32,000 nucleotides of DNA from Candidatus Saccharimonadota bacterium (GCF_029232205.1 NZ_CP107255.1:30001-62000), one strand, 5' to 3'. Counted from the first letter of the stretch, positions 1-32,000 are shown. The notes: generated by a model not told the origin, from the letters alone. Program-made: numbers and translations.

Positions 1-87
1 TTTGCCTGTTTCTGCGACTATTTCCTCTCCAGGCTGGATTTTTACTTCGAGGAAGGGTGAGAAGTCTCCTTTGATTCTGTATTCCAT
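1..87 (-). CDS. N-terminal 29 codons of a TIGR00266/DUF124 (AIM24-like) family protein; the gene runs off the left edge
   Basis: The reverse strand reads ATG at 87 followed by MEYRIKGDFSPFLEVKIQPGEEIVAETGK. This resembles, from memory, the conserved N-terminus of the DUF124/TIGR00266 family. It is too short for the ORF track. Confidence 0.45.
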   Translation of the reverse strand, partial: MEYRIKGDFSPFLEVKIQPGEEIVAETGK

Positions 88-128
88 AAGAGTTGATTGG
101 AGGCCTTGTTGAAAAGCTTTCTTTTGAT

Positions 129-1196
129 TCAGTCTATAAAGTCCTTTACTGTTTCGAAGAAGGTTTTGCTTTCCTCTTTCTCTCTTCTGAGTTCTTCCAT
201 GACTTCTCGTTGTTCCTCAGAGAGTTTTTCCGGTATCTCAACGTCTACCTTGATGAACAGGTCTCCTGTTCTGCGACCTCTTCTGGAAGGCATTCCCTTG
301 TCTTTGACTCTCAGTACCTGGCCTGGCTGTGTTCCGCTTGGTATGTCTACCTGGATTTCCGAGTCCGGTGTCGGAACTGTTATCTGTGTGCCCAGTGATG
401 CATCGCCGACTCCTATTTTTGCGGTTGTGAATAGGTCGTTGTCTCGTCTTTCCAGTGAGTCATGTGGTTCAACGGTGACTCTGATTATCAGGTCTCCTGG
501 TCTGCCGTTTGATTCGTTTCCTTTGCCTGCGACTTTCAGTCTCTGTCCATCCTTAACTCCTGAAGGAATGTCTACTGTAATGGTTTCCTTCTGTTCTGTA
601 AGGCCTTCTCCGTTACATTCCGAGCATTTAGTTTCGGGTATGTTTCCTGTTCCGTTGCACTGCGGGCATTCTGTTACTGTCTGTGTGCGGCCGAAAGGTG
701 TTCTCTGAACCTGTCTTACCTGGCCCTGACCCTCACACTCTGTGCATGTTGATGTGTTGCCGTTTTCTGCCCCACTACCGTTACATTCCGGACATTCCTT
801 TCTTCTTTTTACCTGGAAGCTTTTTTCAATTCCCTTGTAGGCCTCTTCCAGTGTTATCGATGTCTGGATTCTAAGATTCTGGCCTGAGCTGCGGCCTCTT
901 CCACCTCCTCCGAAAAGATGCTCGAAAATATCCTGGAAGTTCTGTGATGCTCTCTGCTGTCCTGCACGTGCGTTTCCTTCTACGCCCTGTTTGCCGAATC
1001 TGTCGTATTTCTTCCTTTTTTCTTCGTCTGAGAGAACGTCGTAGGCCTTGTTAATCTTCTTGAACTTTTCCTCATCAGCTGTATCAGAATTTGAGTCTGG
1101 GTGGTATTTTTTGGCCTTTTTTCTGTAGGCCTTTTTGATTTCGTCCTGGCTTGCGTCTTCGCTGACTCCTAGAAGTTCGTAGTATTCTTTCGCCAA
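129..1196 (-). CDS. dnaJ: Chaperone DnaJ (Hsp40, type I)
   Basis: It has a J domain with HPD (KKYHPDSN), a G-rich linker (FGGGGRGR) and four CxxCxGxG zinc-finger repeats ([32 protein letters not shown]). The start is TTG, preceded by GGTGA 7 nt upstream. Confidence 0.95.
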
Positions 1197-1277
1197 CGAA
1201 CTTTCACCAAAGTTTGATCATGGTTAAACCGCTTGCAGTGGCTTCTGGATTTTTGAAAGAAAGAGGAGAGGAGGACA

Positions 1278-3215: not shown

Positions 3216-3295
3216 TGTTGGTTCACCTATTTTACACTCTAGACTATTTTTTGATTACGTGAATAAAAATTTTTAAATCAGATGTTTAAAATCCT

Positions 3296-3790: not shown

Positions 3791-3828
3791 CGGTGAGAAA
3801 GATTGTTGGCTAATCTTTTATTTTGTAT

Positions 3829-4236: not shown

Positions 4237-4299
4237 GTTATGCAATGAGTTTTTCTGGTTTATGACTTTCCGGTTGTTTGATATACCTCCTTTGTTAAG

Positions 4300-4794: not shown

Positions 4795-4845
4795 CTCCCG
4801 CTATCGCGATTTTAAAGGCCTGTACGGGAACTTTCTCTATTATTC

Positions 4846-6385: not shown

Positions 6386-6620
6386 TTTTGGAGAAATTGA
6401 TATCTTCTATTACGTATATTGTTTGTGTCCCTATAAAAACCTTGGGTTAAATACGGCTTTCATTCTGTCATTACGCCATCAGAAATGCTTGCTTGGAACC
6501 TAGAGGATTATATGTAATCCTATGTTATGATTCAAACTTCATTTGATCCTTCAATAACAACTACCTGAATTTTTCGTACTCAATTATACCTAGAACATTT
6601 CAGTGAGGTCAAGGCCTTTT

Positions 6621-6675: not shown

Positions 6676-9087
6676 ATGAGAATTGAAACTCAGGTAATTG
6701 ATGGCGATTACAGGATTGAGGACGAAGAGGTATTTGTCAGGCTTTTCTGCAGGTCTGGAGAGAAAAATATTATCGCGTACGATAGAGATTTCAGGCCTTA
6801 TTTCTACGCTTTGCCGTCCGAGGAGTCCGATGGCGCTGAAGATCTTGAGAAGAAGATTTCCGATCAGAGTTTTTCGGATGATGATGGCGAACATATTCCT
6901 TTGCTTGATACTGAGGTAGTGGAGAAGATTGTAGGTCATGAGGCTAGGAAGGCTGTCAAGGTGTACACCAATATCCCTGCTAACGTTCCAAAGCTGAAGA
7001 ATGGAGTCTGGGATCTTCCGGAGACCGAGAGATGCCGGGAGTTTGACATTCCTTTCTACCGCCGCTATCTCATCGATAAGAGGATCAGGCCTGGAAAAAC
7101 TGTAGAAGTTTCCGGCGAAGAGGCAGACTCTGATGAATATGATATAGCTATCGAGATAGATGACATCAACCCTGACGTCGATGAAAAAGATCAGGAGTAC
7201 GTTACAATGGCCTTCGATCTTGAAGTGTATCAGGACAAGATTATAATGGCCTCAATGAAGTCTGAAGGTTTTGAAAAAGTTCTTTCTCTTTCAGAGGTTG
7301 ATAGGCCTTTTGTTGAGAGTGTTGAAGATGAGGAAGAGCTTCTTGAGAGATTTATCGAGATAATACAGGATAGAGATGTTGATATTTTAACAGGTTACAA
7401 TACTGATGAGTTTGATTTCTCCGTGCTGAGGGATGCTGCGGAGAGGAATAATGTTACTCTTTCCCTAGGCCGTGATGGCGAGAGAATGAAGTTTAACCGC
7501 AGAGGCCGTTTTTCAGCCGCGAGATTGAAGGGCAGAGCACATCTTGATCTCTATCCTTTCGTTGATCATGTTCTTTCTCCGGGAATGGAGGCCGAGAACC
7601 TTGATCTTGATTCTGTGGCTGAGGAACTTCTCGGCGAGAACAAGGACGATCTGAGTTGGGAGGAGATGAAAGAGTCGTGGGAAGAACAGGAAGATCTTGA
7701 GAAGTTTGCCGATTACTGCCTGAAGGACTCAGATCTAGCGTTGAGACTTTCGGAGGAGATTGTGCCTCAGGTTATGGAGTTGTCGAAGATTGTCGGAACG
7801 ATCCCATTCGATACATGTAGACTTACTTACGGCCAGTTGACAGAAAACTTCCTTTTGAGAGAGGCCTTCGAGAGAGATATGATTGCGCCTAACAGGCCTT
7901 CCCGCAGCAAGAGATCTGATCGAAGAAATGAGGGCGCTTATGCAGGAGGTTTTGTCTATACACCGGAGTCAGGCCTTCACGAAAATATTGCGTTGTTCGA
8001 CTTCCGTTCGTTGTATCCTACAGTGATGGTGGCTCATAATATTTCTCCTGATACACTGAATCTTGATAATTGCAGTGACAGGTTTACGTTGGAGGACTTT
8101 GAGTATGATTTCTGTCAGGATGAGCAGGGTTTCTTCCCTGAGTTGATTGAAGGCCTTGTAGAGGAAAGATATGAGATTAAAAGTGAGATGAAGGATGCAG
8201 ATAAGGATTCTGCTGAGTATCAGAGTTTGTATAATCGCCAGCAGGCCGAAAAGATTCTTGCCAACTCCTTCTATGGTTATCTTGGTTATAACGGTGCCAG
8301 GTGGTACAGCAGGGAGTGTGCGGAGGCCACTACGTATATGGGCCGGAAGTATATTGAGGATACTATTGAGACAGCTGAGGATTTAGGCCTTGAAGTTGTG
8401 TATGGTGATACGGATTCTGTTTTCCTTAAGGGAGATAATATTCGTGAGAGGATGGATGGTTTTCTGGATGAGGTTAACGATGAGCTTCCTGAGTTTATGG
8501 AGCTGGAGTTTGAAGGCTTTTTCAGGAGAGGCCTGTTTACGTCTACCGAGTCCGGTGAAGGGGCCAAGAAGAAGTATGCTTTGATTGATGAGGACGGCGA
8601 GATGAAGATTACTGGTTTTGAGCAGGTTCGTCGTGACTGGAGCCCTATTGCGAAGGAAACTCAGAAGAAAGTTTTACAGGCCGTGCTGGAGGATGATGTC
8701 GACAGGGCAGTCGAGGTTGTAGAAGATACTATAGAGGAGCTTCAGTCGGGTGAGGTGCCGGTTGAGAAGTTGAAGATCTATACTACCTTGACGAAGCCTC
8801 CTGAGGAGTATGGTTCGACGGCTCCGCACGTTGAGGCAGCTAAAAAGGCAAAGAAGAAAGGTGATGAGATCAAGCCTGAGTCAACTATTACTTACGTGAT
8901 TACTTCTGGAGGAGGCACTATTTCTGATCGTGCAAGGCTTCTGAAGTATGCTGATAGCTATGATTCCGAGTACTACGTTGATAACCAGGTTTTACCTGTC
9001 GCTATGAGAGTTCTCAAGGTATTTGGTTATACAGAAGATCAGTTGAAGGGAAAAGGTAAGCAGAGTGGCCTTGACAGGTTTTCCTAG
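6676..9087 (+). CDS. polB: Family B DNA polymerase (PolB)
   Basis: Exonuclease motifs are FDLEV and TGYNTDEFDF. Polymerase motifs are DFRSLYPTVM (motif A), KILANSFYGYLG (motif B) and YGDTDS (motif C). There is no intein. Confidence 0.95.
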   Translation: MRIETQVIDGDYRIEDEEVFVRLFCRSGEKNIIAYDRDFRPYFYALPSEESDGAEDLEKKISDQSFSDDDGEHIPLLDTEVVEKIVGHEARKAVKVYTNIPANVPKLKNGVWDLPETERCREFDIPFYRRYLIDKRIRPGKTVEVSGEEADSDEYDIAIEIDDINPDVDEKDQEYVTMAFDLEVYQDKIIMASMKSEGFEKVLSLSEVDRPFVESVEDEEELLERFIEIIQDRDVDILTGYNTDEFDFSVLRDAAERNNVTLSLGRDGERMKFNRRGRFSAARLKGRAHLDLYPFVDHVLSPGMEAENLDLDSVAEELLGENKDDLSWEEMKESWEEQEDLEKFADYCLKDSDLALRLSEEIVPQVMELSKIVGTIPFDTCRLTYGQLTENFLLREAFERDMIAPNRPSRSKRSDRRNEGAYAGGFVYTPESGLHENIALFDFRSLYPTVMVAHNISPDTLNLDNCSDRFTLEDFEYDFCQDEQGFFPELIEGLVEERYEIKSEMKDADKDSAEYQSLYNRQQAEKILANSFYGYLGYNGARWYSRECAEATTYMGRKYIEDTIETAEDLGLEVVYGDTDSVFLKGDNIRERMDGFLDEVNDELPEFMELEFEGFFRRGLFTSTESGEGAKKKYALIDEDGEMKITGFEQVRRDWSPIAKETQKKVLQAVLEDDVDRAVEVVEDTIEELQSGEVPVEKLKIYTTLTKPPEEYGSTAPHVEAAKKAKKKGDEIKPESTITYVITSGGGTISDRARLLKYADSYDSEYYVDNQVLPVAMRVLKVFGYTEDQLKGKGKQSGLDRFS

Positions 9088-14058: not shown

Positions 14059-16110
14059 ATGAAACTTGACAAACTCTTTCAACCGGATGATATTGCTGTA
14101 GTGGGGGCCTCACGCCATGAAGGGAAGACAGGGCATGAAATTTTCGATAATCTTGTTCATGGGTTTGAGGGAGAGGTTTATCCTGTAAATCCGAAGGCCG
14201 ATGAAGTTGAGGGAAAGAAGGCCTTTGATGAAATTCCGAAAGGAACTGATCTGGCTGTTATTGCTGTTCCTTCAAAGATTGTGCCGAATGTTATGGAGAA
14301 TGCTGCTTCCAAAAAAGTTGATGCAGCGGTCGTTGTTTCCGCCGGTTTTTCGGAGACTGGTAATAAGGAGCTTGAGGAGGAAGTTCTTGGTATTGCGAAC
14401 AGTAACAATATAGATCTTCTTGGACCTAATGTTCTGGGGCTTATTAATACTGAGAATTCGATGAATGCTTCTTTCGCATCTAAAATGCCGGAGGCTGGCA
14501 ATATCTCGTTTATGAGTCAGTCTGGAGCATTCTGTACAGCTATATTGGATTATTCGAAGGCTGAGCATATTGGTTTCCGCCACTTTGTGTCCCTTGGTAA
14601 CAAGGCGCAGTTGAATGAAGTTGATCTCTTGAAGAAATGGCGTGAGGACGATACTGAGTCTATTATTTCGTATACGGAAGGTATTGAGAATGGACGCGAG
14701 TTTATGGAGGAGGCGGAGAAGACTTCACGTGAGAAACCGATTGTAATGATTAAATCAGGCCGTACCGATAAAGGAGGCTCAGCTGCTTCTTCCCATACCG
14801 GGAGCATTGCGGGAAGCTATCAGGCCTACAGGGCTGCTTTCAGGAAGGCCGGAATTATTGAGGCCGAGTCCAACAGAGAGCTTCTTGATTTTGGAAGAGC
14901 TTTCTCGTATCAGAATCCTCCTGACGGCGATAATATTGCTATTGTGACAAATGCTGGAGGGCCTGGTGTTATTACTACTGACGAGATTTCTCAGAGAGGA
15001 TTGGAGCTGGCTGAGTTTTCCGATAAGACAAAGAGTCGTTTGAAGGAGTCTATGCCTGACGAGTCCACGCCTCATAATCCTCTTGATGTTATTGGAGATG
15101 CAGGACATCATCGTTACAGTGAAGGCCTTGAGATTGTTCTTGAGGATGATAATGTGGATGCTGTAGTGGTTTTGCTGACGCCTCAGGCCAATACAGAGAT
15201 TGATAAGACTGCGAAGGCTATTTCGCGCGCGGATGAAAGCTCGGATAAGCCTATTTTTGCCTCTTTCATGGGAGAAGAGGATGTTGAGTCTGGTAAAAGA
15301 ATACTTGAAGAGAATAATATTCCTGAGTTTGAGGATCCTGTTGATGCTGTCAAGACCTTGAAGTCGATGGTTGGGTACAGCGAGTTTCTTCAGCAGGAGA
15401 GAAATTACAGGGATATTGATTACGACAGAAAGAAGGTGGAGGAGGCCTTGCATGATTACTCTGGTTATGCCAACGGCCACAGTCTTTTCGAGGCCTATGG
15501 ATTTGATCTGCCTCTGACAGAGGTTGAGAGCGCTCCGCGAGGTGCTGAAGAAGCTGCATCCAGTATTGGCTATCCTCTGGTTATGAAGGTTGATTCGCCT
15601 GTAGTGTCGCATAAGACTGATGTTGGCGGTGTGAAGACAGGTGTTCAGGATCGTGAAGAGGTGCAGGAGAACTTCAGAGAAATAATTGATAATGTACATC
15701 ACGCCAAGAACGGTAGATCTCCTATAAACGGTATTGTGCTACAGGAAGAGGTTGAAGGCCTTGAAGTGGCTCTTGGAATGAAGAGGGATCCTCAGTTCGG
15801 CCCTATGATTCTTGTAGGTCTTGGAGGCATCTACATAGAGGCATTACATGATATTTCGTTTGGCATTGCTCCTATCAGCGAGGAAGAGGCCGAGCAGATG
15901 ATTGAAGAGCTACAGAGCAGCGACCTGTTTGAAGGTGTTCGTGGAGAAGACCATTCCATGGAGCCTGTAAAGGATGCTATTATCAGGCTTGGAGAACTGG
16001 CCCTGAATCATGAAGAGATTTCCGAGATAGATGTTAATCCATTGATTCTGAAGAAGGAGAAGGCCTTTGTGGCTGATATCGAGATAGAGTTTGAAGAAAA
16101 TTCACGATAG
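14059..16110 (+). CDS. acd: Acetyl-CoA synthetase (ADP-forming), fused alpha/beta subunits (acetate--CoA ligase, NDP-forming)
   Basis: It has an N-terminal CoA-binding domain (IAVVGASRHEGKTGHEIF) and a succinyl-CoA-synthetase-like ligase domain with the phosphohistidine segment GGSAASSHTGSIAGS. The C-terminus is an ATP-grasp domain (GYPLVMKVDSPVVSHKTDVGGV). Confidence 0.88.
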   Translation: MKLDKLFQPDDIAVVGASRHEGKTGHEIFDNLVHGFEGEVYPVNPKADEVEGKKAFDEIPKGTDLAVIAVPSKIVPNVMENAASKKVDAAVVVSAGFSETGNKELEEEVLGIANSNNIDLLGPNVLGLINTENSMNASFASKMPEAGNISFMSQSGAFCTAILDYSKAEHIGFRHFVSLGNKAQLNEVDLLKKWREDDTESIISYTEGIENGREFMEEAEKTSREKPIVMIKSGRTDKGGSAASSHTGSIAGSYQAYRAAFRKAGIIEAESNRELLDFGRAFSYQNPPDGDNIAIVTNAGGPGVITTDEISQRGLELAEFSDKTKSRLKESMPDESTPHNPLDVIGDAGHHRYSEGLEIVLEDDNVDAVVVLLTPQANTEIDKTAKAISRADESSDKPIFASFMGEEDVESGKRILEENNIPEFEDPVDAVKTLKSMVGYSEFLQQERNYRDIDYDRKKVEEALHDYSGYANGHSLFEAYGFDLPLTEVESAPRGAEEAASSIGYPLVMKVDSPVVSHKTDVGGVKTGVQDREEVQENFREIIDNVHHAKNGRSPINGIVLQEEVEGLEVALGMKRDPQFGPMILVGLGGIYIEALHDISFGIAPISEEEAEQMIEELQSSDLFEGVRGEDHSMEPVKDAIIRLGELALNHEEISEIDVNPLILKKEKAFVADIEIEFEENSR

Positions 16111-16319: not shown

Positions 16320-16696
16320 TTCCAAAACTTCTTGAGTCTCTGGCTGGCAGCATTTCGAAGGGAGTGCCTCTTTTAGTAATTCTAGGTTATTTGCCTCTAA
16401 AACTTGCTTTACATCTTTTGGGCAAAGAAGAACATTTTAACACATGGGAAAGACTGGAAAAAATATCTCTGATGCTTATTAGCGGGGTTTTGTGGGGTTA
16501 CTTGTTTTCTTTTGCTTCTAACAGCTTGAATTTAGAATTTGATGCCAATATTGCTTTTTCTCTTTTTATTGCTGCTTTAACTGGGGCTTTCTCAACTTTG
16601 ATTATTGTAGTGGGTCTTATTTTTGTTAGGTTATGCAATGAGGTGAACTACTTTGAGCGTTTTGAGAGCTGGGTAGTGGATAAACTTGATTTTTAA
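16316..16696 (+). CDS. Hypothetical integral membrane protein (about 126 aa, about 3 TM)
   Basis: I place the start at the internal ATG (MIPKLLESLAG...), which overlaps the upstream stop. Hydrophobic helices are VPLLVILGYLPLKLALHLL, ISLMLISGVLWGYLFSFA and IAFSLFIAALTGAFSTLIIVVGLIFV. The segment is AT-rich. Confidence 0.55.
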   Translation: MIPKLLESLAGSISKGVPLLVILGYLPLKLALHLLGKEEHFNTWERLEKISLMLISGVLWGYLFSFASNSLNLEFDANIAFSLFIAALTGAFSTLIIVVGLIFVRLCNEVNYFERFESWVVDKLDF

Positions 16697-16995
16697 ACTG
16701 ATGTTTGTGGTTTCTGGCCTGGTAGTGGTTCATCGACGTTTTCTGTAAGCGTTATATCGTATCTGTTTTCTTCAGGGTACCAGTCAGCCTCCATTCGAGG
16801 ATTGTCGATATCCAGTTCCTCAAATATTTCGTCTACAAATGCTCCTACACCTGGTTTTTCAGATCCTTCCTCGAAAGCTACGTAGATGTAGGCCTGATCT
16901 CTGGCGTCATCTATATCGATGCTGGTTCTGTATCGCCCGTCATAGTTCTCGTTGAAGAACTGGTTTATCTCTTCTTCAAGGACTTCTGGTTCCAT
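16693..16995 (-). CDS. Hypothetical acidic cytoplasmic protein (100 aa)
   Basis: This is an intact ORF whose D/E-rich composition matches the proteome. I do not recognise a family. Its stop overlaps the stop of the convergent 16316-16696 gene (TTTAAA). Confidence 0.6.
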   Translation of the reverse strand: MEPEVLEEEINQFFNENYDGRYRTSIDIDDARDQAYIYVAFEEGSEKPGVGAFVDEIFEELDIDNPRMEADWYPEENRYDITLTENVDEPLPGQKPQTSV

Positions 16996-17070
16996 CAGTG
17001 CATGTTTCGTGTTTAAAGCCTAAATTCTCTTCGGTAGAATGAAGAAAAAACTGGGAAGAAGAGGCCTTTT

Positions 17071-17877
17071 CTAGTTCAGGCCTACTTCTGCTTCTCCTTC
17101 GATCTCTGCTTCAGCTGAAGTCTCAGTGTCTTCTGTTGAGGTTTCGGTTTCTGCGTCGACTTCTGCTTCAATTTCTAGATCGGTTTCGAAGCTTCCTTCG
17201 CTGTCTCCTGATTCAACTTCTACTTCGAACTCGTCGGCCTCTGGGACTGTAACGACAAGTTCTCCGTCTGCGTTGGTCTGGCCAGCTATTTCGCCGTTAA
17301 TTTTGACTGTTGCGTTGGCGACCGCCTCTTCTTCCTGCATTGCTTTTACAGTTACGTTGTTGCCGGATTCAATCTCTCCGTCAACATCTACCTGGATAGA
17401 TGTGCTGGTTTCCTGGGTGGAATCGTCGTCGGATTCGTTGTTTCCTACTGATTCGGCTGCCTGATTGTTTCCTCTGTCTGATAGGAAGGAGCTGATTGCT
17501 GAGAGAATTCCTGCCTGATTTCCGGCACGGGCCTCTGCTGATACTTCTGCTCCAAGATTGCTCTTGTTGTTCTGTGCGTGTTCTGGAGGACCTCTCTGTG
17601 CATCGGTGTTTGTTTCTGCTTCTGCGGAGGCATTGGCTTTTTCTTCTAGCTCAGTTACTCTCTGCTGAAGCTGCTGTACCTGCTGCTGTAGTTTCTGTAC
17701 TTGTGATCTTAGATCTGATATGGTCTGTCCTATATCTGCCTGTGCAGATGCTTGCGCATCTGTTTCAACCTGGTTGTTTGACTGTGCCTGCGCTGGCTGT
17801 GCTGCTGCTGGTGCAGCAAATCCAAGCGCCATTCCTGCTATGAGGAATATTGCTGTAATCTTATTCGAGTGGTTCAT
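17071..17877 (-). CDS. Secreted protein with a Q-rich coiled coil and an Ig-like/carboxypeptidase-regulatory-like beta domain
   Basis: The signal peptide is MNHSNKITAIFLIAGMALGFAAPAAA. The coiled coil is LRSQVQKLQQQVQQLQQRVTELEEK. The beta-rich segment is NVTVKAMQEEEAVANATVKINGEIAGQTNADGELVVTVP, followed by a highly acidic tail. GGTGA lies 6 nt upstream of the ATG. Confidence 0.7.
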   Translation of the reverse strand: MNHSNKITAIFLIAGMALGFAAPAAAQPAQAQSNNQVETDAQASAQADIGQTISDLRSQVQKLQQQVQQLQQRVTELEEKANASAEAETNTDAQRGPPEHAQNNKSNLGAEVSAEARAGNQAGILSAISSFLSDRGNNQAAESVGNNESDDDSTQETSTSIQVDVDGEIESGNNVTVKAMQEEEAVANATVKINGEIAGQTNADGELVVTVPEADEFEVEVESGDSEGSFETDLEIEAEVDAETETSTEDTETSAEAEIEGEAEVGLN

Positions 17878-17933
17878 TTGATTTCACCAAGCTGGTATAC
17901 TCAGTCCACCCTTATATGGCGTGTCCAGAAACA

Positions 17934-17976
17934 GTGGTTTAAACCCGTTAAGAAGCCGTTTAAACCCGTTTAACGG
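17934..17976. repeat. Phased direct/inverted repeats: GTTTAAACCCGTT x2 (21-nt period) and CCGTT(T)AA x3 (10-11-nt period)
   Basis: The 13-mers at 17937-17949 and 17958-17970 are identical. CCGTT occurs at 17945, 17956 and 17966. The terminal CCGTTTAACGG (17966-17976) is an inverted repeat. The cluster lies upstream of a TATA-like TTATAT (17912-17917) of the 17071-17877 gene. Confidence 0.45.
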
Positions 17977-18000
17977 TGAAGAAATTCTGTTCAATTATGT

Positions 18001-18390
18001 TTATCGCTGCTGTTTTCGTATCTCGTCGAAGTCGGCCTCAACCAGGTATGTGTTGGCTTTTTTCTTCTTGATTACGAGGTCTCTTTCGAAAAGTTCGGAG
18101 ACTGCGTTGCTGATTGTGGCCTTTGAAACATCTATTTCATCAGGCAGATCGCTCTGAAGTTTTGAATCGTCCATTACCGAGTCCAGTACTTCCTCAGCTC
18201 TTCTGGAAAGGCCTATATTGTCTATCCGTAGGTCTTTTCCTTCTTCCTCTTTTTCTTGATTGGAGGCTGTTACAAGAACCTGTCGAAGTTTCCAGATGTA
18301 AAGGCCTGAGGCAAATGTCAGCGCTATGAAGGCCCCTAGCATCATGTAGATTAGAATTTCGAACTCTGCTTCTGGGAATGGGACAGCCAT
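18001..18390 (-). CDS. Membrane-anchored winged helix-turn-helix protein (MarR/TrmB-like HTH after one N-terminal TM helix)
   Basis: The TM helix is ILIYMMLGAFIALTFASGLYIW. The HTH-like segment is LSRRAEEVLDSV...QSDLPDEIDVSKATISNAVSELFERDLVIKKKKANTYLV. GAGGT lies 6 nt upstream of the ATG, and only 4 nt separate it from the upstream gene. Confidence 0.7.
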   Translation of the reverse strand: MAVPFPEAEFEILIYMMLGAFIALTFASGLYIWKLRQVLVTASNQEKEEEGKDLRIDNIGLSRRAEEVLDSVMDDSKLQSDLPDEIDVSKATISNAVSELFERDLVIKKKKANTYLVEADFDEIRKQQR

Positions 18391-18394
18391 GTTT

Positions 18395-19189
18395 CTACCT
18401 CAGGTCTGTCAAAGAATTGTTTTCTGTAATTTTATTGTTCTGAGGTTCTGGCCTGTTTTTATCTACATTTTCGTCAGAACTAACTGGAGCTTCGCTGTCT
18501 TTGACAGAAGACGCCTTATTCTCTGCTTTGTCCACAGTTTCTTCTACAGATCTGTTGTCTAGATCAGGTTTCTGGCCCTGTGTCAGGTTCTCAGGATTCC
18601 TGTTTTCTCCATTATTTAGATTAGGTCTGCCGGTATTTTCAGGTTTGCCTGTCTGGTTACGGCCTGTAACTGGTATTTCCGATTTGTTGAGGGCTTCTGA
18701 TGGCGGGCCTTGTCTTCTCTTCTCTGATTGGTTTATTGCCTTTTCTATAGCGCCTTTGGCCTGTTCTGGGACTTTTTCCTTCACTTCTTTGAGAGTTTCA
18801 ACGTTTTTATTTGAAATATTGTTTATTTTCTGCTTTAGTTGCTCGTCCTGGCCTTTTCCAGCCAGTTCGACAGATCTATTCAGGGTCTTTGAGTATCTGT
18901 CTATGGCTTCTGCTGCTTTATCGCTTTTGTTTCTTTCTATAAGTGTTTGGGCCTCAGATACGCGTTCTTCTGCGTTGTTTGCCAGGGCCTTGGCTTTCAT
19001 ATCGTCTCCGCCTATTACTCCTGCCAGTTTGACTTCAAGGTTCTCTGCAAACATTTCTACTCCATAGAATGGGCTGGCAGGTGTTAGGCCTGGTGCTAAT
19101 CCGTTTTCAGAACTGTTTGTTGTTTGCTGAGCTGAGGCTGTTCCGATCAGGATTAGAGATGCTAAAAGCAGGATTGCGGTCTTTCTCAT
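18395..19189 (-). CDS. Secreted helical protein, DUF5667-like N-terminal region
   Basis: The signal peptide is MRKTAILLLASLILIGTASA. The motif PGLTPASPFYGVEMFAENLEVKL resembles, from memory, the DUF5667 signature. The C-terminus is low-complexity and N/Q/P-rich. ATG 19189 lies about 27 nt downstream of the TATA-like GGTTTAAAATC; the ORF-track start is TTG 19198. Confidence 0.65.
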   Translation of the reverse strand: MRKTAILLLASLILIGTASAQQTTNSSENGLAPGLTPASPFYGVEMFAENLEVKLAGVIGGDDMKAKALANNAEERVSEAQTLIERNKSDKAAEAIDRYSKTLNRSVELAGKGQDEQLKQKINNISNKNVETLKEVKEKVPEQAKGAIEKAINQSEKRRQGPPSEALNKSEIPVTGRNQTGKPENTGRPNLNNGENRNPENLTQGQKPDLDNRSVEETVDKAENKASSVKDSEAPVSSDENVDKNRPEPQNNKITENNSLTDLR

Positions 19190-19294
19190 ATTCTTCAAAC
19201 TCGCGCTGATGATTTTAAACCATTTTATTAACGATTGTTTAACTTCTGGCTTTTAATTTATTCTACTGTTTTTTGAAGAGGCCAAGCTGTTTAA

Positions 19295-21350: not shown

Positions 21351-22244
21351 ATGAACGATGAAGAACGCCAGAAGTACGTTGAAGCAGGAGAAGTAATTCA
21401 GAAGGCCCGGAAGCATGCTAGGGAGGTTGCAACTCCAGGAACTAACTTGAAGGAGATTGCTGAAAGTATCGAGCAGCTTATCAGAGATGAAGGCCTTGAA
21501 CCTGCTTTCCCCGTAAATCTTTCGATAGATGAGGAGGCCGCACACTACTCTCCAGGAGTTTCCGAGGACAGAGTTCTGAAGGAGGACGATGTCTTGAAGA
21601 TTGATATCGGTGCTCACTGCGATGGATATATTGCGGATACTGCTCTGACAGTTAATCCTTCTGGCAGCGAGGAGGAAATGATTGAAACAGTTGAAGAAGT
21701 TCTTGAAGAGGCCCTTGAGTTTTTGGAGCCTGGTGTTACTGTTGGAGAGTTCGGTGCTTTTGTTCAGAGACAGATTCCAGATGATTACTCTCCGATAAGA
21801 AACTTGACAGGCCACTATCTGGGCAAATATACTCAGCACGCAGGTGTATCCATTCCTAACGTGGATAACGGTTCTGAACATGTTATTGAGGAGGGAGATG
21901 CCGTGGCTATCGAGCCTTTCCTGACTGATGGTTCTGGAAAGATCAAGAACGGGAAAAAAGGTAATATCTACAAGCTAGAGACTGATAGAAATGTTAGAGG
22001 CCGTCATGAGAGAAAGCTTCTTGGCGATATCAAGGAGTTTCAGGGCCTCCCGTTCAGCACGAGATGGTTTGATGACTTCGGCGCCCGTCAGAAAATGGCG
22101 TTGAACAAGCTTGTACAGGCCGATGTAGTTCATTCCTATCCTGTTTTGAAAGAGGTTGAAGGAGGTACAGTGGTTCAGGCCGAGCACACGGTGCTTGTTG
22201 GTGCAGGAGAGGACGGCGAGAACATTGTTACAACTCGTCGTTAA
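21351..22244 (+). CDS. map: Methionine aminopeptidase, type 2 (archaeal)
   Basis: The pita-bread fold metal ligand context is visible: DVLKIDIGAHCDGYIADTA, NLTGHYLG, AIEPF, AEHTVLV. A type-2 helical insert is present. Confidence 0.93.
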   Translation: MNDEERQKYVEAGEVIQKARKHAREVATPGTNLKEIAESIEQLIRDEGLEPAFPVNLSIDEEAAHYSPGVSEDRVLKEDDVLKIDIGAHCDGYIADTALTVNPSGSEEEMIETVEEVLEEALEFLEPGVTVGEFGAFVQRQIPDDYSPIRNLTGHYLGKYTQHAGVSIPNVDNGSEHVIEEGDAVAIEPFLTDGSGKIKNGKKGNIYKLETDRNVRGRHERKLLGDIKEFQGLPFSTRWFDDFGARQKMALNKLVQADVVHSYPVLKEVEGGTVVQAEHTVLVGAGEDGENIVTTRR

Positions 22245-22768
22245 ATCTTGCAGGCCTTTCTACCAAGCTGGTTCAAAGTGTATACTGTAGATGCCAGCAG
22301 GAATAGAATGGCGATTATTCTTATGCTGTAGCCTGAGAACGGGATCATTGCTATAATGCTTGATGCTCCGGTCAGGCCTACTACTGCTCCTGCACATGCG
22401 GTACATGCAGGTGCAAATGTTGCGATGAATGCGCCTGTTATCGATGAGGCATTTTCTCTACCGAACTCCGACAGTTCAAGAAGTCTGAATGCTGCAAGAG
22501 TGATGTTAATTCCTATCAGGCCTGAAATAGCTATAACTAGCAGTATTTCTATTTTTGGAAGTGTCTGGAAGTATCTGAGCGATATTCCTGGTGCCAGCGC
22601 TACAGCGAGCGAGAGATCTCCTTCAAGGATGTATCTTTCGAGAAGGCCTGAGTTGTTGAAAATGCTGTAAGCTGCTAGCGAGATTATAGAAAGAGAAAGG
22701 GATAGAAGGAGGTATCGAGGCCTCCTGAGGATGTCCTTCAGTTTATTCAGGTTTTCCTCTGCGTTCAT
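22241..22768 (-). CDS. Hypothetical 4-TM membrane protein with an intramembrane CxxC (FAPACTACAGAV); putative redox partner of the adjacent DsbA-like protein
   Basis: I place the start at internal ATG 22768 (MNAEENL...), which overlaps the upstream stop (TAATG). There are four hydrophobic helices, CTAC in helix 3, and a further Cys near the C-terminus (KACKI). The ORF-track extension to 22957 overlaps the upstream gene. Confidence 0.65.
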   Translation of the reverse strand: MNAEENLNKLKDILRRPRYLLLSLSLSIISLAAYSIFNNSGLLERYILEGDLSLAVALAPGISLRYFQTLPKIEILLVIAISGLIGINITLAAFRLLELSEFGRENASSITGAFIATFAPACTACAGAVVGLTGASSIIAMIPFSGYSIRIIAILFLLASTVYTLNQLGRKACKI

Positions 22769-23697
22769 TATCCCTGGTTCTGGAGTTCCTGATCGATAAT
22801 TTTGCTCATGGTGTCGTAGGACTGTGCTCCGCTGAGGCTGACGTATCCTTCCTCCTCGCTTCCGATGAAGAAGAGGGGAGTTCCAATTCTGTCGACTTTG
22901 CTTCTTACGAGATTTACGTCGTTCTGAACTTCTGAGTTTCCTGAGCTGGAAACACATTGTTCCATTGCTGTTGCGTTTGCTCCTACGTTCTGAGCGATTG
23001 ATCGGAAGGTTTGATCAGGCATGTCCTGCCCTGAGTCTCCTCCAAGCCATTCGGTTCTTCTCTCGTACAGAGTCTTGCTGAATTCGCTGTAAAGACTGCT
23101 ATCCTGTTCGTATATGCAGTTAGCGGCCTTGTGTGCCTGAAGAGCGTTCGGGTGCGCAGGATAGTCCATCACCGTGAACTGGATCTCTCCTGTGTCGATG
23201 TAGTTTTCTTTCAGCTTGTCGTAGTTCTGATTGTTGTCAATTCTGCCGTTTACACGAGCGGCATCGTCAGGAATTGCGTCCGCACCCATCCATTCTGCAC
23301 ACCATGGACATCCGTAGTCAGTAACCATGATGACTCTTACAGGTGCGTCAGAGGGTCCGAGAGTTGGATCATCGGAAATATTGCTGCTGGCGAACTGTAT
23401 GCGATCAGAGCTTGAATCATTGTTTACAGAAGGAAGATCAACTCCCTGAGTGTTCAGAGCGTTAAGGCCTCCGATCAAGAAACCTCCTAAAAGAACACCT
23501 ATCAGAAAGCTGGCATAGACAGTTTTTCGATTATTAAAGTTGAATATGGCCTTTTTGCTTTCTTCATTATTGTTGTCTTCAGAGGAGGAATGATTTTCTT
23601 CGTCCTCTTCGATATGTTTCTGGCTTTGATGGATGTGCAGGCCTCTTTTGGAGTCGAATTCTCGGCCGCAGTCATCGCATGTGAATTTTTCAGTCAT
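22768..23697 (-). CDS. C2H2 zinc finger / TM / DsbA-like thioredoxin-fold oxidoreductase fusion
   Basis: The N-terminal FTCDDCGREFDSKRGLHIHQSQKH fits C-x2-C-x3-F-x5-L-x2-H-x4-H. An acidic linker follows, then the TM helix VYASFLIGVLLGGFLIGGL. The extracytoplasmic thioredoxin domain has the active site DYGCPWCAEW and DsbA-like helices. Confidence 0.75.
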   Translation of the reverse strand: MTEKFTCDDCGREFDSKRGLHIHQSQKHIEEDEENHSSSEDNNNEESKKAIFNFNNRKTVYASFLIGVLLGGFLIGGLNALNTQGVDLPSVNNDSSSDRIQFASSNISDDPTLGPSDAPVRVIMVTDYGCPWCAEWMGADAIPDDAARVNGRIDNNQNYDKLKENYIDTGEIQFTVMDYPAHPNALQAHKAANCIYEQDSSLYSEFSKTLYERRTEWLGGDSGQDMPDQTFRSIAQNVGANATAMEQCVSSSGNSEVQNDVNLVRSKVDRIGTPLFFIGSEEEGYVSLSGAQSYDTMSKIIDQELQNQG

Positions 23698-23754
23698 GTT
23701 AGAATATGCTTGTTGAGAATTAATAAGGAAAAGGGAGAAGTTTTTGAGGCCTGA

Positions 23755-28012: not shown

Positions 28013-28021
28013 GATCTAAAA

Positions 28022-29116: not shown

Positions 29117-29123
29117 ATTATCT

Positions 29124-29978: not shown

Positions 29979-30021
29979 TTTATGGAAAATTTTTTACTGA
30001 AAGTTTCAGAAGGTGTATTGT

Positions 30022-30300
30022 ATGGCTGATTTGCTTGAAGACGCAAGAGAGAACATTGATGAGATAAACCATGAGATAGCTGAACTGGTATCCGAGAGAA
30101 TGGAGGAAGTGGTCAAAGTCGTTGAATACAAGGAAGAGAACAACATGGATGTCAAGGATGAAGGTAGAGAGGAACAGGTTATGCAGCAGTTTGGCGATCT
30201 TTTCGAGGAGAGAGATCTTCCTCGTGAGAGAGGCCGTCAGTTAGGCCGTCTTTTGATTGATACTGCGGTCGATGCTGAAAGAGAGATGATGGATAAGTAG
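30022..30300 (+). CDS. Chorismate mutase (AroQ class, monofunctional)
   Basis: This is a ~92-aa all-helical protein with RENIDEINHEIAELVSERMEEV...YKEEN...D..REEQV, matching the CM_2 pattern. AAGGTG lies 6 nt upstream of ATG 30022. Confidence 0.8.
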   Translation: MADLLEDARENIDEINHEIAELVSERMEEVVKVVEYKEENNMDVKDEGREEQVMQQFGDLFEERDLPRERGRQLGRLLIDTAVDAEREMMDK

Positions 30301-30301
30301 T

Positions 30302-32000
30302 CTACCAGTCGTCCTTGCTTGCGCAGTCGGGATCTATACACATCTGGTAGTCCCTTCCTTTCTTTCTCTGAACATCGATCATCGGCTTTCCACATGTCTC
30401 ACATTCTTTATCCAGACTGGAAATCTTTCCGTTGTTCGGAAGCGGGTATGTGTTTTCGCAGTCAGGGTAGTTGGAGCAACCCACAAACTTGCTGCCGTTT
30501 GACTTGATAATTCTGAGTTTTCCGCCTTCGCGATCTTCTTCCTCACATTTATCGCAAGGCCCGAGAGTTCTCCTTCTCTTTCTCTCGGAATCAATAGTAT
30601 CTACTAGCTGAGCACCAATCTTGGCCTCGTTCTCCTTGAATTTTTCCAGAGTCTCCTTGAGTTCTTCGCGGGCCTTTGAGAGAACGTCTTCTCGTGACTC
30701 CTCCTCATTTCTGATTGACTGCATGTTCTCCTCGAATTCTCGGGTAAGTTCTTCGCTGAGAAGTGTTGGAGAGTACTCTTCGAGTGTTTCGACAATTGTC
30801 AGGCCTAGATCTGATACCTCGATTGGATCTTCTTCAATATAGTTTCTGTTGTAGAGCCTGTCAACTACCTGTGCTCTCGTGGCCTTTGTACCAAGATTCT
30901 TTTTCTCAAGTTCGGATACGATACCTGACTGGGAGTATCTTCTTGGTGGCTGTGTCTCTTTCTCGTCAAGTCTGAAGTCCTCGATATCCAGAACTTCTCC
31001 TTCTTCGAGGCCTGGAAGCTCTGCTTCTTCAACTCTGACGTATGGATCGTAGAGGTCAAACCAGTTTCTTTCCTTGGTGACTTTTGACTTGGCCTTGAAT
31101 TCGTGGCCTTCAACATCAAGTGTCAGTGTCAGTGACTGTCTCTTTGCTGCATCGCCGAATACCGCGCAGAAGCGCTTGGCAATCAGATCGTAGACCTGAC
31201 CTTCTCTCTTGGAGAGGCCCGAAGGATGTTCTCCTGTAGGATAGATTGCAGGGTGTGCATCGTCTTTCTTTTTACCCTGTCGAGGATATCTGTCGTCATC
31301 GTCTTTTTCAAGCACTTTTTTGGCGGGTTCCTCCAGTTTATCCTGCTTTTTGAGCTTCTTCAGAATATTTTCGTATCCAATCTTGGCAGGAAGCTTCTGC
31401 GACTCGGTACGCGGATAAGAAATCAGGCCGTTCTCGTAAAGAGTCTGTGCAATGGCCTGAGTCTGTTTAGGATTAATATTAAACTGTGAAGAGGCCTCTT
31501 TCTGAAGGCCTGTTAGGTTGAAAGGAATTGGAGGGTTGTGCTTGTAGTTATTGACCTTGATATTTGATACGTGTGTCTTTGTGGCGTCTTTTACTCTGTT
31601 GAATACTCCTTCAGCGACGTCCTCGTTCCATATTCGGTCTTCGTCGTCCTCCCACTGGGCCTCGAACTCTTCGTGGATCAGGTAGATTTCCCAGTAAGGA
31701 TCTGGCTCGAAGGCCATGATTTCGCGTTCTCTGTCTGCTAGAACTTTCAGTGCTGGGCCCTGTACACGCCCTGTTGAGAGTGTTTTGTATCTGTCGTTTT
31801 CTCTTACTGCCTGCATCAGTGCTCTTGAAACGTTGACACCGTAGTAGAAGTCCAGGAAGTGTCTTGTGAATCCGGCCTCTGTCATTCCTTTGTCGTAGCC
31901 TTCTAGATTGTCGTAGGCCTCTTGTAGGTCGCTTGCTGTCAGTGTTGAGAACTTCATTCTTTTGATTCTGTCTTCTGGCGCGTCAGCAATCTGTTTTATT
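30302..32000 (-). CDS. topA: DNA topoisomerase I (type IA), C-terminal ~565 codons; the N-terminal Toprim part lies beyond the right edge
   Basis: The active-site region is ENGLISYPRTESQKL. Type IA domains 2-4 are present, and C-terminal zinc ribbons are CDKCEE...CSNYPDC and CETCGKP...CIDPDC. The reading frame remains open upstream of the first Met (31957) to the window end. Confidence 0.93.
   Translation of the reverse strand, partial: IKQIADAPEDRIKRMKFSTLTASDLQEAYDNLEGYDKGMTEAGFTRHFLDFYYGVNVSRALMQAVRENDRYKTLSTGRVQGPALKVLADREREIMAFEPDPYWEIYLIHEEFEAQWEDDEDRIWNEDVAEGVFNRVKDATKTHVSNIKVNNYKHNPPIPFNLTGLQKEASSQFNINPKQTQAIAQTLYENGLISYPRTESQKLPAKIGYENILKKLKKQDKLEEPAKKVLEKDDDDRYPRQGKKKDDAHPAIYPTGEHPSGLSKREGQVYDLIAKRFCAVFGDAAKRQSLTLTLDVEGHEFKAKSKVTKERNWFDLYDPYVRVEEAELPGLEEGEVLDIEDFRLDEKETQPPRRYSQSGIVSELEKKNLGTKATRAQVVDRLYNRNYIEEDPIEVSDLGLTIVETLEEYSPTLLSEELTREFEENMQSIRNEEESREDVLSKAREELKETLEKFKENEAKIGAQLVDTIDSERKRRRTLGPCDKCEEEDREGGKLRIIKSNGSKFVGCSNYPDCENTYPLPNNGKISSLDKECETCGKPMIDVQRKKGRDYQMCIDPDCASKDDW

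Follow-up and report, generated by a model that had tools for sequence, protein, structure and literature searches.

Hyper-abundant palindromes have been known in cyanobacteria for 30 years. HIP1 (GCGATCGC) and the alternate HIPs GGCGCC, GCCGGC, and GCsGC are the described examples (Elhai 2015, PMC4390886; Xu, Lawrence & Durand 2018, PMC5861425). A methyltransferase of matching specificity accompanies each alternate HIP, whose one-letter deviations are found at the outer positions (PMC4390886). In the case of HIP1, quasi-periodic spacing and site conservation beyond the neutral level have been reported (Xu et al. 2018, PMC5861425). The hexamer AGGCCT, described here, shows a similar behavior. 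Like HIP1 and the alternate HIPs, it is a short GC-rich palindrome with approximately one copy per 0.2-1 kb, more than 10x the expectation. It occurs in every coding frame and in non-coding DNA, deviations by one letter are concentrated at its two ends, and no mechanism has been agreed upon for it or for them. With the alternate HIPs it also shares a length of 5-6 bp and a sporadic rather than clade-wise distribution. HIP1, with which a preliminary description of this DNA had compared AGGCCT, is the best available analogy as a GC-rich palindrome with outermost deviations in sporadic lineages (PMC4390886). Unlike HIP1, AGGCCT is another word in another domain of life (DPANN archaea), is even denser (2.7-4.6 per kb), and lacks periodicity or clear excess site conservation. 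The key correlate of the HIPs in cyanobacteria is the matching methyltransferase, whereas for AGGCCT this enzyme is a presumed one.

Other known systems share some of these features. RM systems of the StuI type (AGGCCT) and of the HaeIII/MthTI/SuaI type (GGCC) recognize the same palindromic word, and the strict inner and looser outer bases of AGGCCT resemble the specificity of an enzyme. However, the targets of active RM systems are normally avoided, and AGGCCT is enriched. Dcm/Vsr of E. coli and M.MthTI/Mig.Mth of Methanothermobacter each represent a methylated palindrome with a repair footprint. T-containing deamination products are depleted there, as they are around AGGCCT, but the AGGCCT effect exceeds theirs by an order of magnitude and extends to all six positions and to transversions. 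DUS/USS are thought to arise through molecular drive and not through per-site benefit. These words and Chi are, like AGGCCT, short and over-represented genome-wide in genic and intergenic DNA. They are longer, non-palindromic, and orientation-dependent, whereas AGGCCT is a symmetric hexamer and cannot carry orientation.

AGGCCT appears to be a separate archaeal instance of such a palindrome, and the genomes concerned are ~1 Mb in size. We found no published description of AGGCCT enrichment in archaea, Nanohaloarchaea, or DPANN. Our tentative reading, to which we assign a probability of about 40%, is that AGGCCT belongs to the highly iterated palindromes, is specific to certain lineages of Nanohaloarchaeota, and is driven by a DNA enzyme that is probably methyltransferase-linked.

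Abundance and placement of AGGCCT in the window

The window, i.e., the whole 32-kb stretch of DNA that was analyzed, has the gene order of Ca. Nanohalovita haloferacivicina BNXNv (compared with PMC10266531), which points to a nanohaloarchaeal origin. It contains 87 exact AGGCCT matches, in line with the earlier estimate of 85-90 copies, and AGGCCT ranks first among the 4096 hexamers. The gaps between sites have a median of 298 bp and a maximum of 1131 bp. The sites start at the following positions:

101, 601, 839, 1043, 1127, 1501, 1805, 2077, 2794, 3465, 3976, 4074, 4584, 4816, 5131
5578, 5827, 6612, 6793, 7087, 7303, 7862, 7894, 7971, 8151, 8385, 8529, 9127, 9193, 9517
10029, 10327, 10880, 10998, 11664, 12672, 13542, 13813, 13973, 14219, 14822, 15123, 15443, 15491, 15756
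16061, 16890, 17062, 17078, 18209, 18302, 19086, 19366, 19425, 19860, 20382, 20405, 20928, 21146, 21491
22252, 22374, 22518, 22644, 22718, 23465, 23639, 23747, 24569, 25385, 25586, 25826, 26353, 27019, 27152
27863, 28162, 28249, 28812, 28851, 29088, 29872, 30801, 31008, 31492, 31506, 31915

The over-representation is confirmed as real. The expected count is 6.2, 7.8, and 27 under order-0, order-1, and order-2 models, respectively, and 100 dinucleotide-preserving shuffles gave 7.88±2.58 copies with a maximum of 15. Synonymous codons were also shuffled within genes, with protein sequence and codon usage held fixed. This gave 13.3±3.2 AGGCCT vs 77 real sites (z ~20) and 96±8 GGCC vs 250. Since both kinds of shuffle fall far below the observed count, base composition, codon usage, and amino-acid usage are insufficient as causes, as the preliminary description had argued. 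In seven loci (12-32 kb per genome) AGGCCT reaches 8.6-23x the order-0 expectation. HIPs are short GC-rich palindromes in excess of at least ~10-fold genome-wide, and over the lengths covered AGGCCT has this kind of abundance. Restriction avoidance would deplete the word, and the opposite is seen. Other palindromes are depleted in the window, such as CTCGAG (1 vs 13.5 expected) and CTTAAG (1 vs 9.6).

The maximal-order Markov expectation, built from penta- and tetranucleotides, is 91.9 and hence close to the count of 87. The preliminary description had named such agreement as a reason to give up the enrichment. The agreement formally holds, but the anomaly persists and is shifted to the sub-words GGCC (265 vs 149 expected, z 9.5), AGGCC, and GGCCT (both z ~3). 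This indicates that the outer bases A and T contribute independently. In the window, 87 of the 265 GGCC (33%) are in the A-GGCC-T context, and not close to half as first thought; a 5' A is present in 53% and a 3' T in 66%. The proposed extended motif AAGGCCTT is also not borne out, with 16 copies vs 11.5 expected from its 7-mers and with near-background values outside the hexamer.

Among the 87 sites, 82 lie within ORFs, and genes of both strands carry them. The confident genes of the window contain 38 sites as xxA GGC CTx, 31 as xAG GCC Txx, and 8 as AGG CCT. Together with the non-coding sites, these three phases agree with the earlier claim that AGGCCT occurs in more than one codon phase, on both strands, and between genes. 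Scans of the window for tRNAs and against Rfam were both empty. Representative features are as follows:

4816-4821: intergenic AGGCCT
6612-6617: intergenic AGGCCT, upstream of polB
6676-9087, plus strand: family-B DNA polymerase gene; phase 1 example (xAG GCC Txx, Glu-Ala-Phe) at 7862-7867
14059-16110, plus strand: ADP-forming acetyl-CoA synthetase gene; phase 2 example (xxA GGC CTx, Glu-Gly-Leu) at 15756-15761
17062-17067: intergenic AGGCCT; a second site, 17078, lies 16 bp away within the next gene
22241-22957, minus strand: membrane-protein ORF; phase 0 example (AGG CCT, Arg-Pro) at 22718-22723
22252-22723: densest AGGCCT stretch, 5 sites in 470 bp (22252, 22374, 22518, 22644, 22718)
23747-23752: intergenic AGGCCT, between the DsbA-like and Cdc48 genes

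The two coding examples cited earlier, GAA GGC CTT (E-G-L, 15754-15762) and GAG GCC TTC (E-A-F, 7861-7869), are in frame, and the four sites claimed as intergenic (4816, 6612, 17062, and 23747) are indeed so. Phase 2 is the commonest (38 sites), and AGGCCT is present in 69% of the permissive X-Gly-Leu contexts. In phase 1 (31 sites), it fills 62% of the [K/E/Q]-Ala-[C/F/L/S/W/Y] contexts. Arg-Pro is written as AGG CCT in 8 of the 17 dipeptides in confident genes, although AGG makes up merely 14% of Arg codons. The five sites of the densest stretch are all in the usual phases of the minus-strand ORF.

Pressure on DNA, not on translation

The pressure works on DNA and not on translation. Non-coding DNA of the enriched loci contains 26 AGGCCT in 8.2 kb vs 1.9 expected (3.17/kb), and the density is 3.25/kb in whole enriched loci and 0.38/kb in control genomes. 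The pressure is equal in genes and between genes, and the exact hexamer is favored wherever it can be written. AGGCCT appears in all coding frames and in non-coding DNA independently of codon usage, as the HIPs do. Counted on the sense strand, both AGGCC and GGCCT reach ~3.8x the synonymous-shuffle mean, so the effect is strand-symmetric. All six positions respond. The choice in the motif context vs overall is 0.88 vs 0.37 for A at position 1, 0.86 vs 0.52 for G at position 2, 0.90 vs 0.18 for AGG at position 3, 0.86 vs 0.30 for GGC at position 4, 0.92 vs 0.28 for GCC at position 5, and 0.93 vs 0.46 for CCT at position 6. This context-dependent choice is absent from the control genomes.

The inner GGCC is strictly needed, and the outer A and T each add independently. 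Compared with the control level, GGCC is raised 1.24x with no A/T flank, 3.1x with one flank, and 13.8x with both. Among one-letter variants, NGGCCT reaches 2.1-6.6x the control density and inner-position variants 0.53-1.09x, so that deviations fall at the first and last positions in the HIP manner. No conservation is seen beyond the hexamer, and the AGGCCT flanks are at background.

These observations bear on a trivial origin, in which AGGCCT is a by-product of composition, dinucleotide, codon, or codon-pair bias, or a short mobile repeat. This genome uses GGC, GCC, CTT, and AAG/GAG as ordinary codons, and the Markov expectation of 91.9 also speaks for such an origin. The shuffles are far too low for it, however, the non-coding density equals the genic density, and GGC and GCC are favored solely within the motif context. 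Moreover, the enrichment is missing from genomes of relatives that are alike in GC and codon usage, and the sites occupy aligned codons of conserved proteins without insertions. REP/MITE elements would share flanks and be mainly intergenic, whereas the flanks here are unconserved and most sites are in ORFs. We give this origin practically no credence, and it is already refuted.

A repair footprint has also been considered. Here, an m5C methyltransferase acting at GGCC or AGGCCT would be paired with a T:G repair enzyme of the Vsr/Mig.Mth type that over-corrects T to C. An archaeal precedent exists, since the GGCC methylase M.MthTI is encoded beside the T/G glycosylase Mig.Mth, and the most depleted transition neighbors are GGTC/GACC and AGGTCT/AGACCT (0.57-0.61 of the control density). 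However, the C-to-T neighbors AGGTCT and AGGCTT are short by -0.53 sites/kb (-0.38 and -0.14), which is ~17% of the AGGCCT excess of +3.0 sites/kb. The transversion neighbor AGGGCT is equally depleted (0.53), the outer A/T and the G at positions 2 and 3 respond too, including choices that require transversions, and at the C positions, A, G, and T variants are found with similar frequency in the orthologues from non-enriched genomes. A Vsr/Mig footprint would balance the excess by C-to-T loss and leave the other positions unaffected, and neither is the case. Methylation or repair bias alone, one of the causes first suggested, is already contradicted as the sole cause, and we regard the footprint as very improbable. 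It may still play a part if a Vsr/Mig gene follows the trait.

The pressure fills approximately two-thirds of the synonymously reachable positions and slightly shifts protein sequences. Approximately 65% of the amino-acid contexts that allow the word contain it, and in the window AGGCCT is realized in 77 of the 122 permitted contexts. Gly-Leu dipeptides and permitted contexts are commoner in enriched than in non-enriched genomes. AGGCCT distorts codon choice and even protein sequence, and it may bias k-mer-based binning and the detection of horizontal transfer.

AGGCCT on and off among relatives

The comparison covered 31 related loci. The realized fraction of permitted contexts is 0.55-0.75 in 7 genomes and at most 0.14 in 24, without intermediates. 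A bootstrapped tree of eight concatenated proteins places the enriched L008 and L012 as sister to the non-enriched L004, L020, and L021 (100% bootstrap), and the window, L001, and L002, together with L003, group with the non-enriched L011 and L013 (97%). A clade uniting all enriched genomes has 0% support. The AGGCCT trait is phylogenetically patchy and is switched on in some lineages but not in the lineages that are sister to them. This clean contrast between close lineages (55-75% vs at most 14% filled) is a natural experiment, and phyletic profiling over the many available nanohaloarchaeal genomes could pinpoint the responsible gene.

A variable block beside the ACD gene (17071-19198), which includes a winged-helix protein, was considered as the determinant. 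It is shared with the enriched L008 but is missing from the enriched L012 as well as from the non-enriched L011 and L013, so its presence does not follow that of the enrichment.

Neither spacing nor individual sites showed signs of selection in the tests made. The spacing is no more regular than that of a random subset of allowed positions (P=0.17) and has no periodicity, so the fairly even spread noted at first is accounted for by the positions that the proteins permit. Neighbors do not interfere: when two adjacent permitted positions are 30-300 bp apart, the filling of one is independent of the other. Sharing is common, with 26 of 41 AGGCCT positions found in both the window and L008. At common permitted positions, sharing between genomes gives odds ratios of 1.7-6, mostly not significant, and is mostly as saturation predicts; one genome pair shares realized positions in excess (odds ratio 6.1, p=0.02). 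Independent filling of sites, unremarkable spacing, and sharing mostly at the level given by saturation are a better fit to drive than to selection acting on coverage or on particular sites. The equilibrium sequence pattern is equally compatible with direct selection and with drive.

Under direct selection, a lineage-specific protein would bind or recognize AGGCCT and require it in many copies genome-wide, each of them selectively kept. The word could be a self tag in recombination, repair, or uptake (Chi-, USS-, or HIP1-like) or a site for a nucleoid protein. The response of all six positions and the protein changes that yield more AGGCCT are in its favor, as is the genome pair with excess sharing. 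HIP1 sites have been argued to be selected (PMC5861425), and HIP1 is reported to boost transformation efficiency in a homology- and methylation-dependent manner (preprint 10.1101/2024.09.10.611283). In contrast, the lack of interference and of a spacing signal means that the diminishing returns predicted for a coverage or density function are not seen, and sharing is otherwise accounted for by saturation. A log-odds shift of ~3.7 per site would have to be maintained at ~3000 sites (extrapolated) in a 1-Mb obligate symbiont. Sister lineages are at baseline, the enrichment being lost or never present, and a 6-bp word gives little specificity for a tag. The uptake, architectural, and landmark roles that the preliminary description had suggested may still apply. 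Direct selection is possible, although we do not consider it likely.

One form of it concerns the lifestyle of these organisms. It has been proposed that Nanohaloarchaea obtain nucleotides by scavenging DNA from outside the cell, and they would therefore need to discriminate self from imported DNA (PMC10266531). AGGCCT might be a self mark in such DNA-scavenging DPANN symbionts, read by a lineage-specific and possibly methylation-dependent protein, which we consider doubtful. If so, its density would set the symbiont's chromosome apart from DNA imported from the host or the environment, steering recombination and repair to self DNA and degradation to foreign DNA. The word would then correspond, in archaea and without orientation, to Chi or HIP1, and its presence or absence in sister lineages would reflect differing DNA-acquisition strategies.

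DNA uptake may also act without benefit to the cell. As with Neisseria DUS and Haemophilus USS, fragments bearing AGGCCT would be preferentially taken up or recombined among the cells of a population, and the word would spread by gene conversion. AGGCCT does accrue independently in every context, lineages either have the trait or lack it, and DNA uptake has been proposed in Nanohaloarchaea (PMC10266531). HIP1 abundance has been tied to a type IV secretion system (2026 preprint, 10.64898/2026.06.24.733823). However, known uptake words are 9-12 bp, non-palindromic, often arranged as inverted terminator pairs, and served by a dedicated receptor, whereas AGGCCT is a 6-bp palindrome with no extended flank, single intergenic sites, and no paired-terminator architecture. 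A hexamer is also frequent in foreign DNA. We consider this kind of drive quite unlikely.

Candidate enzymes behind the proposed drive

The reading that we prefer is a HIP-like drive by an AGGCCT-recognizing enzyme. The most likely driver would be an orphan DNA methyltransferase specific for AGGCCT. Acting together with repair or recombination, it may cause mismatches or heteroduplexes to be resolved preferentially in favor of the cognate, methylatable sequence. The word would thus spread by molecular drive, as Elhai proposed for HIP1 and the alternate HIPs, and not by natural selection at each site. Gain or loss of the driver gene would turn the enrichment on or off.

The literature offers leads to such an enzyme. 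RM genes and orphan methyltransferases are typically patchy, as is the AGGCCT trait, and GGCC m4C methylation occurs in Sulfolobus acidocaldarius (PMC10609329). AGGCCT-specific m4C methylation is found in Alcanivorax borkumensis (PMC12128166). In the enriched M3_22 (L001), the sole RM-type gene listed is a partnerless Type II m4C methyltransferase, and for LC1Nh the entry is a single Type II m5C methyltransferase (PMC10609329, Tables 1-2). SVXNc carries two methyltransferases of the Dcm-like type, with only a single motif assigned (PMC11001535).

Neither the window nor the ~127 kb of enriched loci showed a methyltransferase, nuclease, or repair gene, and a search of all loci (each ~2% of its genome) for signature motifs of C5-, N4-, and N6-methyltransferases and of Vsr gave nothing. 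Against a methyltransferase, the Elhai ratchet depends on methyl-directed MutS/MutL repair, a pathway that these archaea may lack. In addition, BNXNv is reported to have a Type III RM system only (PMC10266531), and PacBio profiling of SVXNc gave GDGcHC only (PMC11001535), so that AGGCCT would be without m4C/m6A there if SVXNc is enriched. As the enriched strains BNXNv and LC1Nh are in culture, the answer is testable, and sensitivity to StuI offers a quick assay of AGGCCT modification.

Viral contigs with three AGGCCT in ~80 bp were also sought. The 120 loci retrieved included none of nanohaloarchaeal origin. The AGGCCT-dense viral contigs are polyomavirus-like contigs and AT-rich phage repeats.

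AGGCCT abundance and the favoured unit

AGGCCT occurs exactly 87 times in the window, within the range of 85-90 copies estimated in the preliminary description. The gaps between sites have a median of 298 bp and a maximum of 1131 bp. AGGCCT ranks first among the 4096 hexamers, above T-rich words that are expected at 33% T. The order-0, order-1 and order-2 models predict 6.2, 7.8 and 27 copies, respectively, and dinucleotide-preserving shuffles (n=100) yield 7.88±2.58 (maximum 15), which upholds the claim of strong over-representation. A maximal-order Markov model, which had been proposed as a check on this claim, does reproduce the count (140 x 174 / 265 = 91.9). However, this match does not dissolve the excess, because the model conditions on pentamers that carry the same anomaly. 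GGCC itself is found 265 times where trinucleotides predict 149 (z 9.5), and AGGCC and GGCCT are each a further 1.27x over their own expectation. The maximal-order match therefore indicates that neither flanking base, 5' A or 3' T, depends on the other for its contribution.

Two details of the preliminary description are revised. The share of GGCC tetramers in the A-GGCC-T context is 33% rather than close to half. The proposed extension to AAGGCCTT is barely above prediction, with 16 copies in the window against 11.5 predicted from its 7-mers, and bases beyond the hexamer are near background.

The contexts of GGCC were compared between seven enriched loci, from AGGCCT-rich genomes, and seven non-enriched relatives (controls) of similar GC content.

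Density of GGCC contexts, enriched relative to control
GGCC, neither flank matching: 1.24x
GGCC, one matching flank: 3.1x
GGCC, both flanks matching (AGGCCT): 13.8x
Hexamers with an inner-position mismatch: 0.53-1.09x

The hexamer AGGCCT is therefore the favoured object. Its inner GGCC is strictly required; the outer A and T are less stringent and act additively, as expected from a symmetric DNA-recognising protein.

Depletion against order-1 expectation is strong for several other palindromes in the window: CTCGAG (1 vs 13.5), CTTAAG (1 vs 9.6), CGATCG (1 vs 5.9), GCCGGC and ACCGGT (0 vs ~2.6) and CTAG (59 vs 121). The pattern resembles ordinary avoidance of restriction sites, beside the AGGCCT excess.

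Codon choice, saturation and spacing

Genes were called as the longest ORFs and checked with Pfam. They include DnaJ/DnaK/GrpE, PolB, four pyruvate-dehydrogenase subunits, ADP-forming acetyl-CoA synthetase, malic enzyme, Cdc48, a RadA-like ATPase, prephenate enzymes and a topoisomerase; none of the window ORFs is a DNA-modification gene. In confident genes, AGGCCT uses all three phases (xxA GGC CTx 38, xAG GCC Txx 31, AGG CCT 8) on both coding strands, so that the earlier report of more than one phase and both strands is extended. Both of its codon examples lie in the claimed frame, and its four named intergenic sites are indeed intergenic. Permutation of synonymous codons within each gene, which preserves protein sequence and codon usage, gives 13.3±3.2 AGGCCT against 77 observed and 96±8 GGCC against 250 observed. 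As had been argued, codon or amino-acid usage cannot explain the motif.

Both pentamers, AGGCC and GGCCT, reach ~3.8x their own shuffle mean on the sense strand; the effect is therefore strand-symmetric. Despite this equal enrichment, sense strands carry 186 AGGCC and 105 GGCCT, because of the A/T strand asymmetry. This asymmetry is strong in the window (T 10525 vs A 6735). Purines prevail on sense strands, and the asymmetry is consistent with most long genes being encoded on the minus strand.

In the pooled enriched loci, context-dependent codon choice is strong at all six positions of the hexamer.

Codon choice in AGGCCT context and overall, enriched loci
Position 1, four-fold codon ending in A before GGC CT.: 88% vs 37%
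Position 2, K/E/Q codon ending in G before GCC: 86% vs 52%
Position 3, Arg as AGG before CCT: 90% vs 18%
Position 4, Gly as GGC between ..A and CT.: 86% vs 30%
Position 5, Ala as GCC between.AG and T..: 92% vs 28%
Position 6, Pro as CCT after AGG: 93% vs 46%

This choice is absent at all six positions in the non-enriched relatives, and an inner mismatch (e.g..AA before Ala) abolishes the preference (20%). Non-coding segments of the enriched loci hold 26 AGGCCT in 8.2 kb against an order-1 expectation of 1.9. Their density (3.17/kb) matches the overall density of these loci (3.25/kb; control genomes 0.38/kb), and the pressure therefore acts on the DNA itself. Composition and codon bias are ruled out as the cause by the shuffles and by the equal non-coding density.

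The hexamer can be written synonymously at Arg-Pro, at [K/E/Q]-Ala-[C/F/L/S/W/Y] and at Gly-Leu after a residue with an A-ending codon. Confident genes of the window offer 122 such permitted positions, and 77 (63%) carry AGGCCT. Across 31 loci, the realised fraction is bimodal, with seven loci at 0.55-0.75 and the remaining 24 at 0.00-0.14. Permitted positions are also more frequent in enriched genomes (11-20 per 1000 codons vs ~10), and Gly-Leu dipeptides reach 1.1-1.4 observed/expected vs ~1.0. Amino-acid sequences have therefore shifted too.

The sites, described as fairly evenly spread, are more even than uniform random placement (CV 0.72, P=0.001) but their evenness does not exceed that of permitted positions drawn at random (P=0.17). 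Occupancy of a permitted position is independent of that of its neighbour 30-300 bp away, and no periodicity of AGGCCT sites was detected. The window has AGGCCT positions in common with three distant enriched genomes (26/41 with L008, 16/33 with L012, 15/29 with L003). Four-fold codon identity with these genomes is 0.35-0.37, no higher than with non-enriched relatives, and synonymous sites are therefore saturated. Where two genomes both permit the word, its presence in one is only a weak predictor of its presence in the other (odds ratios 1.7-6; only L008 reaches p=0.02). The sharing is thus mostly that of two independently saturated genomes. We thus see no evidence of selection on spacing, coverage or particular sites.

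Two overlapping ORFs lie in a dense stretch.

22241-22957, minus strand: membrane-like ORF, hydrophobic, without a Pfam match, with five AGGCCT in 470 bp
22356-22670, plus strand: antisense ORF of 104 aa, in which three AGGCCT of the opposite ORF read as Arg-Pro

The antisense ORF is probably spurious. The membrane-like ORF overlaps a DsbA-like gene by 190 nt, and its true start is therefore probably further downstream.

Distribution among Nanohaloarchaeota

PolB and neighbouring genes place the window in Nanohaloarchaeota. Its gene order (PDH, AcdA, seven genes, malic enzyme, six genes, PheA-AspB-TyrA-chorismate mutase) agrees with the locus tags BNXNv_0048-52, 0060 and 0067-70 (PMC10266531), which suggests that the window corresponds to Ca. 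Nanohalovita haloferacivicina BNXNv; look-ups of exact protein sequences gave no record. SVXNc is without the aromatic operon (PMC10266531). For each genome, 12-32 kb of one and the same chromosomal neighbourhood was covered. Besides the window, the following are enriched.

L001: strain M3_22, CP046106, said to share a genus with the window
L002
L030: a Nanohalobium
L003
L008: Nanosalina sp. VS9-1, NZ_CP180230
L012

AGGCCT is not enriched in the classic genomes J07AB43 and J07AB56 or in many MAGs. In a neighbour-joining tree of eight concatenated proteins (300 bootstraps), a distance-based method that leaves deeper branching uncertain, non-enriched L004, L020 and L021 are sister to enriched L008 and L012 (100% support). 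The window, L001 and L002, together with L003, cluster with non-enriched L011 and L013 (97%), and a clade uniting all enriched genomes receives 0%. This tree requires no fewer than two gains or losses of the enrichment.

L020 and L021 show a slight excess (8 vs 4.1 and 9 vs 4.0), with realised fractions of 0.12 and 0.09; the other non-enriched genomes in clades containing enriched lineages (L004, L010, L011, L013) are at 0-0.05. The excess could be a decaying remnant of past enrichment, or noise. L013 (JBLGBK010000002.1), deposited as a 'Colwellia polaris' MAG, is evidently mis-binned or mislabelled, since it bears a nanohaloarchaeal PolB and PDH and ACD genes ordered as in the window (62-82% identity).

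A variable block (window 16250-19198; L008 20536-22377) separates the acetyl-CoA synthetase gene from the DUF502/malic-enzyme genes. It contains two small hypothetical genes, a coiled-coil/Fn3_arc protein, a winged-helix protein (18001-18390, 73% identity to its L008 counterpart) and a DUF5667 protein. The block occurs in L008, is missing from the corresponding place in L011, L012 and L013, and does not follow the AGGCCT trait.

Candidate mechanisms and highly iterated palindromes

Dispersed repeats are ruled out, as flanks are at background and sites lie within aligned codons. A methylation/very-short-patch repair bias had also been suggested. Three results exclude a pure T:G to C:G repair footprint as the sole cause. 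At the two C positions of window sites, A, G and T occur with similar frequency in non-enriched orthologues (9/10/8 and 4/11/8). The response extends to the outer A and T and to both Gs. The joint deficit of AGGTCT (-0.38 sites/kb) and AGGCTT (-0.14) is too small, only ~17% of the AGGCCT surplus (+3.0 sites/kb), and the transversion neighbour AGGGCT is depleted equally to AGGTCT.

Whatever agent causes the excess must recognise the palindrome as a whole. It would either bias sequence change toward AGGCCT (drive) or give each copy selective value, and the equilibrium pattern alone cannot tell the two apart. Our preferred reading is drive tied to a Type II-like enzyme, for which an orphan AGGCCT methyltransferase is the most plausible candidate. 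Sites behave independently, without diminishing returns, and an obligate symbiont would hold, by extrapolation, ~3000 sites per 1-Mb genome at ~65-75% occupancy. Enrichment is all-or-none and its distribution is patchy, as for restriction-modification genes (PMC10609329), and every alternate highly iterated palindrome (HIP) of cyanobacteria co-occurs with a methyltransferase of the same specificity (PMC4390886). The sole RM-type gene listed for M3_22, REBASE organism 40725, is a partnerless Type II m4C methyltransferase, LC1Nh has one Type II m5C enzyme (PMC10609329), and AGGCCT m4C methylation is known in another organism (PMC12128166); these leads fit methyltransferase drive and prove nothing. 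Against it, a Type III system is the only one mentioned for BNXNv (PMC10266531), and GDGcHC is the only motif in SVXNc PacBio data (PMC11001535). Elhai's ratchet also presumes methyl-directed mismatch repair, which is an assumption in these archaea. Drive has a serious rival in the idea that AGGCCT functions as a 'self-DNA' or recombination/uptake signal: recent HIP1 work hints at such a signal (10.1101/2024.09.10.611283), and DNA scavenging has been proposed for nanohaloarchaeal symbionts (PMC10266531).

In full-text searches of papers available without subscription, no account of enriched AGGCCT or GGCC turned up for nanohaloarchaea or for any other archaeon. The likeness to HIP1 noted earlier is borne out, and AGGCCT, which shows three of the four HIP hallmarks examined out of five, is filed as a highly iterated palindrome in DPANN archaea. 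Alternate HIPs likewise deviate at outer positions (PMC4390886).

Local AGGCCT clusters also occur in IMG/VR contigs. L058 (e.g. 617, 627, 637) and L118 carry them beside polyomavirus-like large-T-antigen and capsid ORFs. These clusters are probably the GAGGC repeats at which T antigen binds in the origin, and they have no relation to the archaeal enrichment. L031 and L111 are related, AT-rich (GC 36%) and phage-like. Their AGGCCT sites form tight groups between small genes at 14-45 bp spacing (13 sites in 3.6 kb in L031), which look like a local repeat array.
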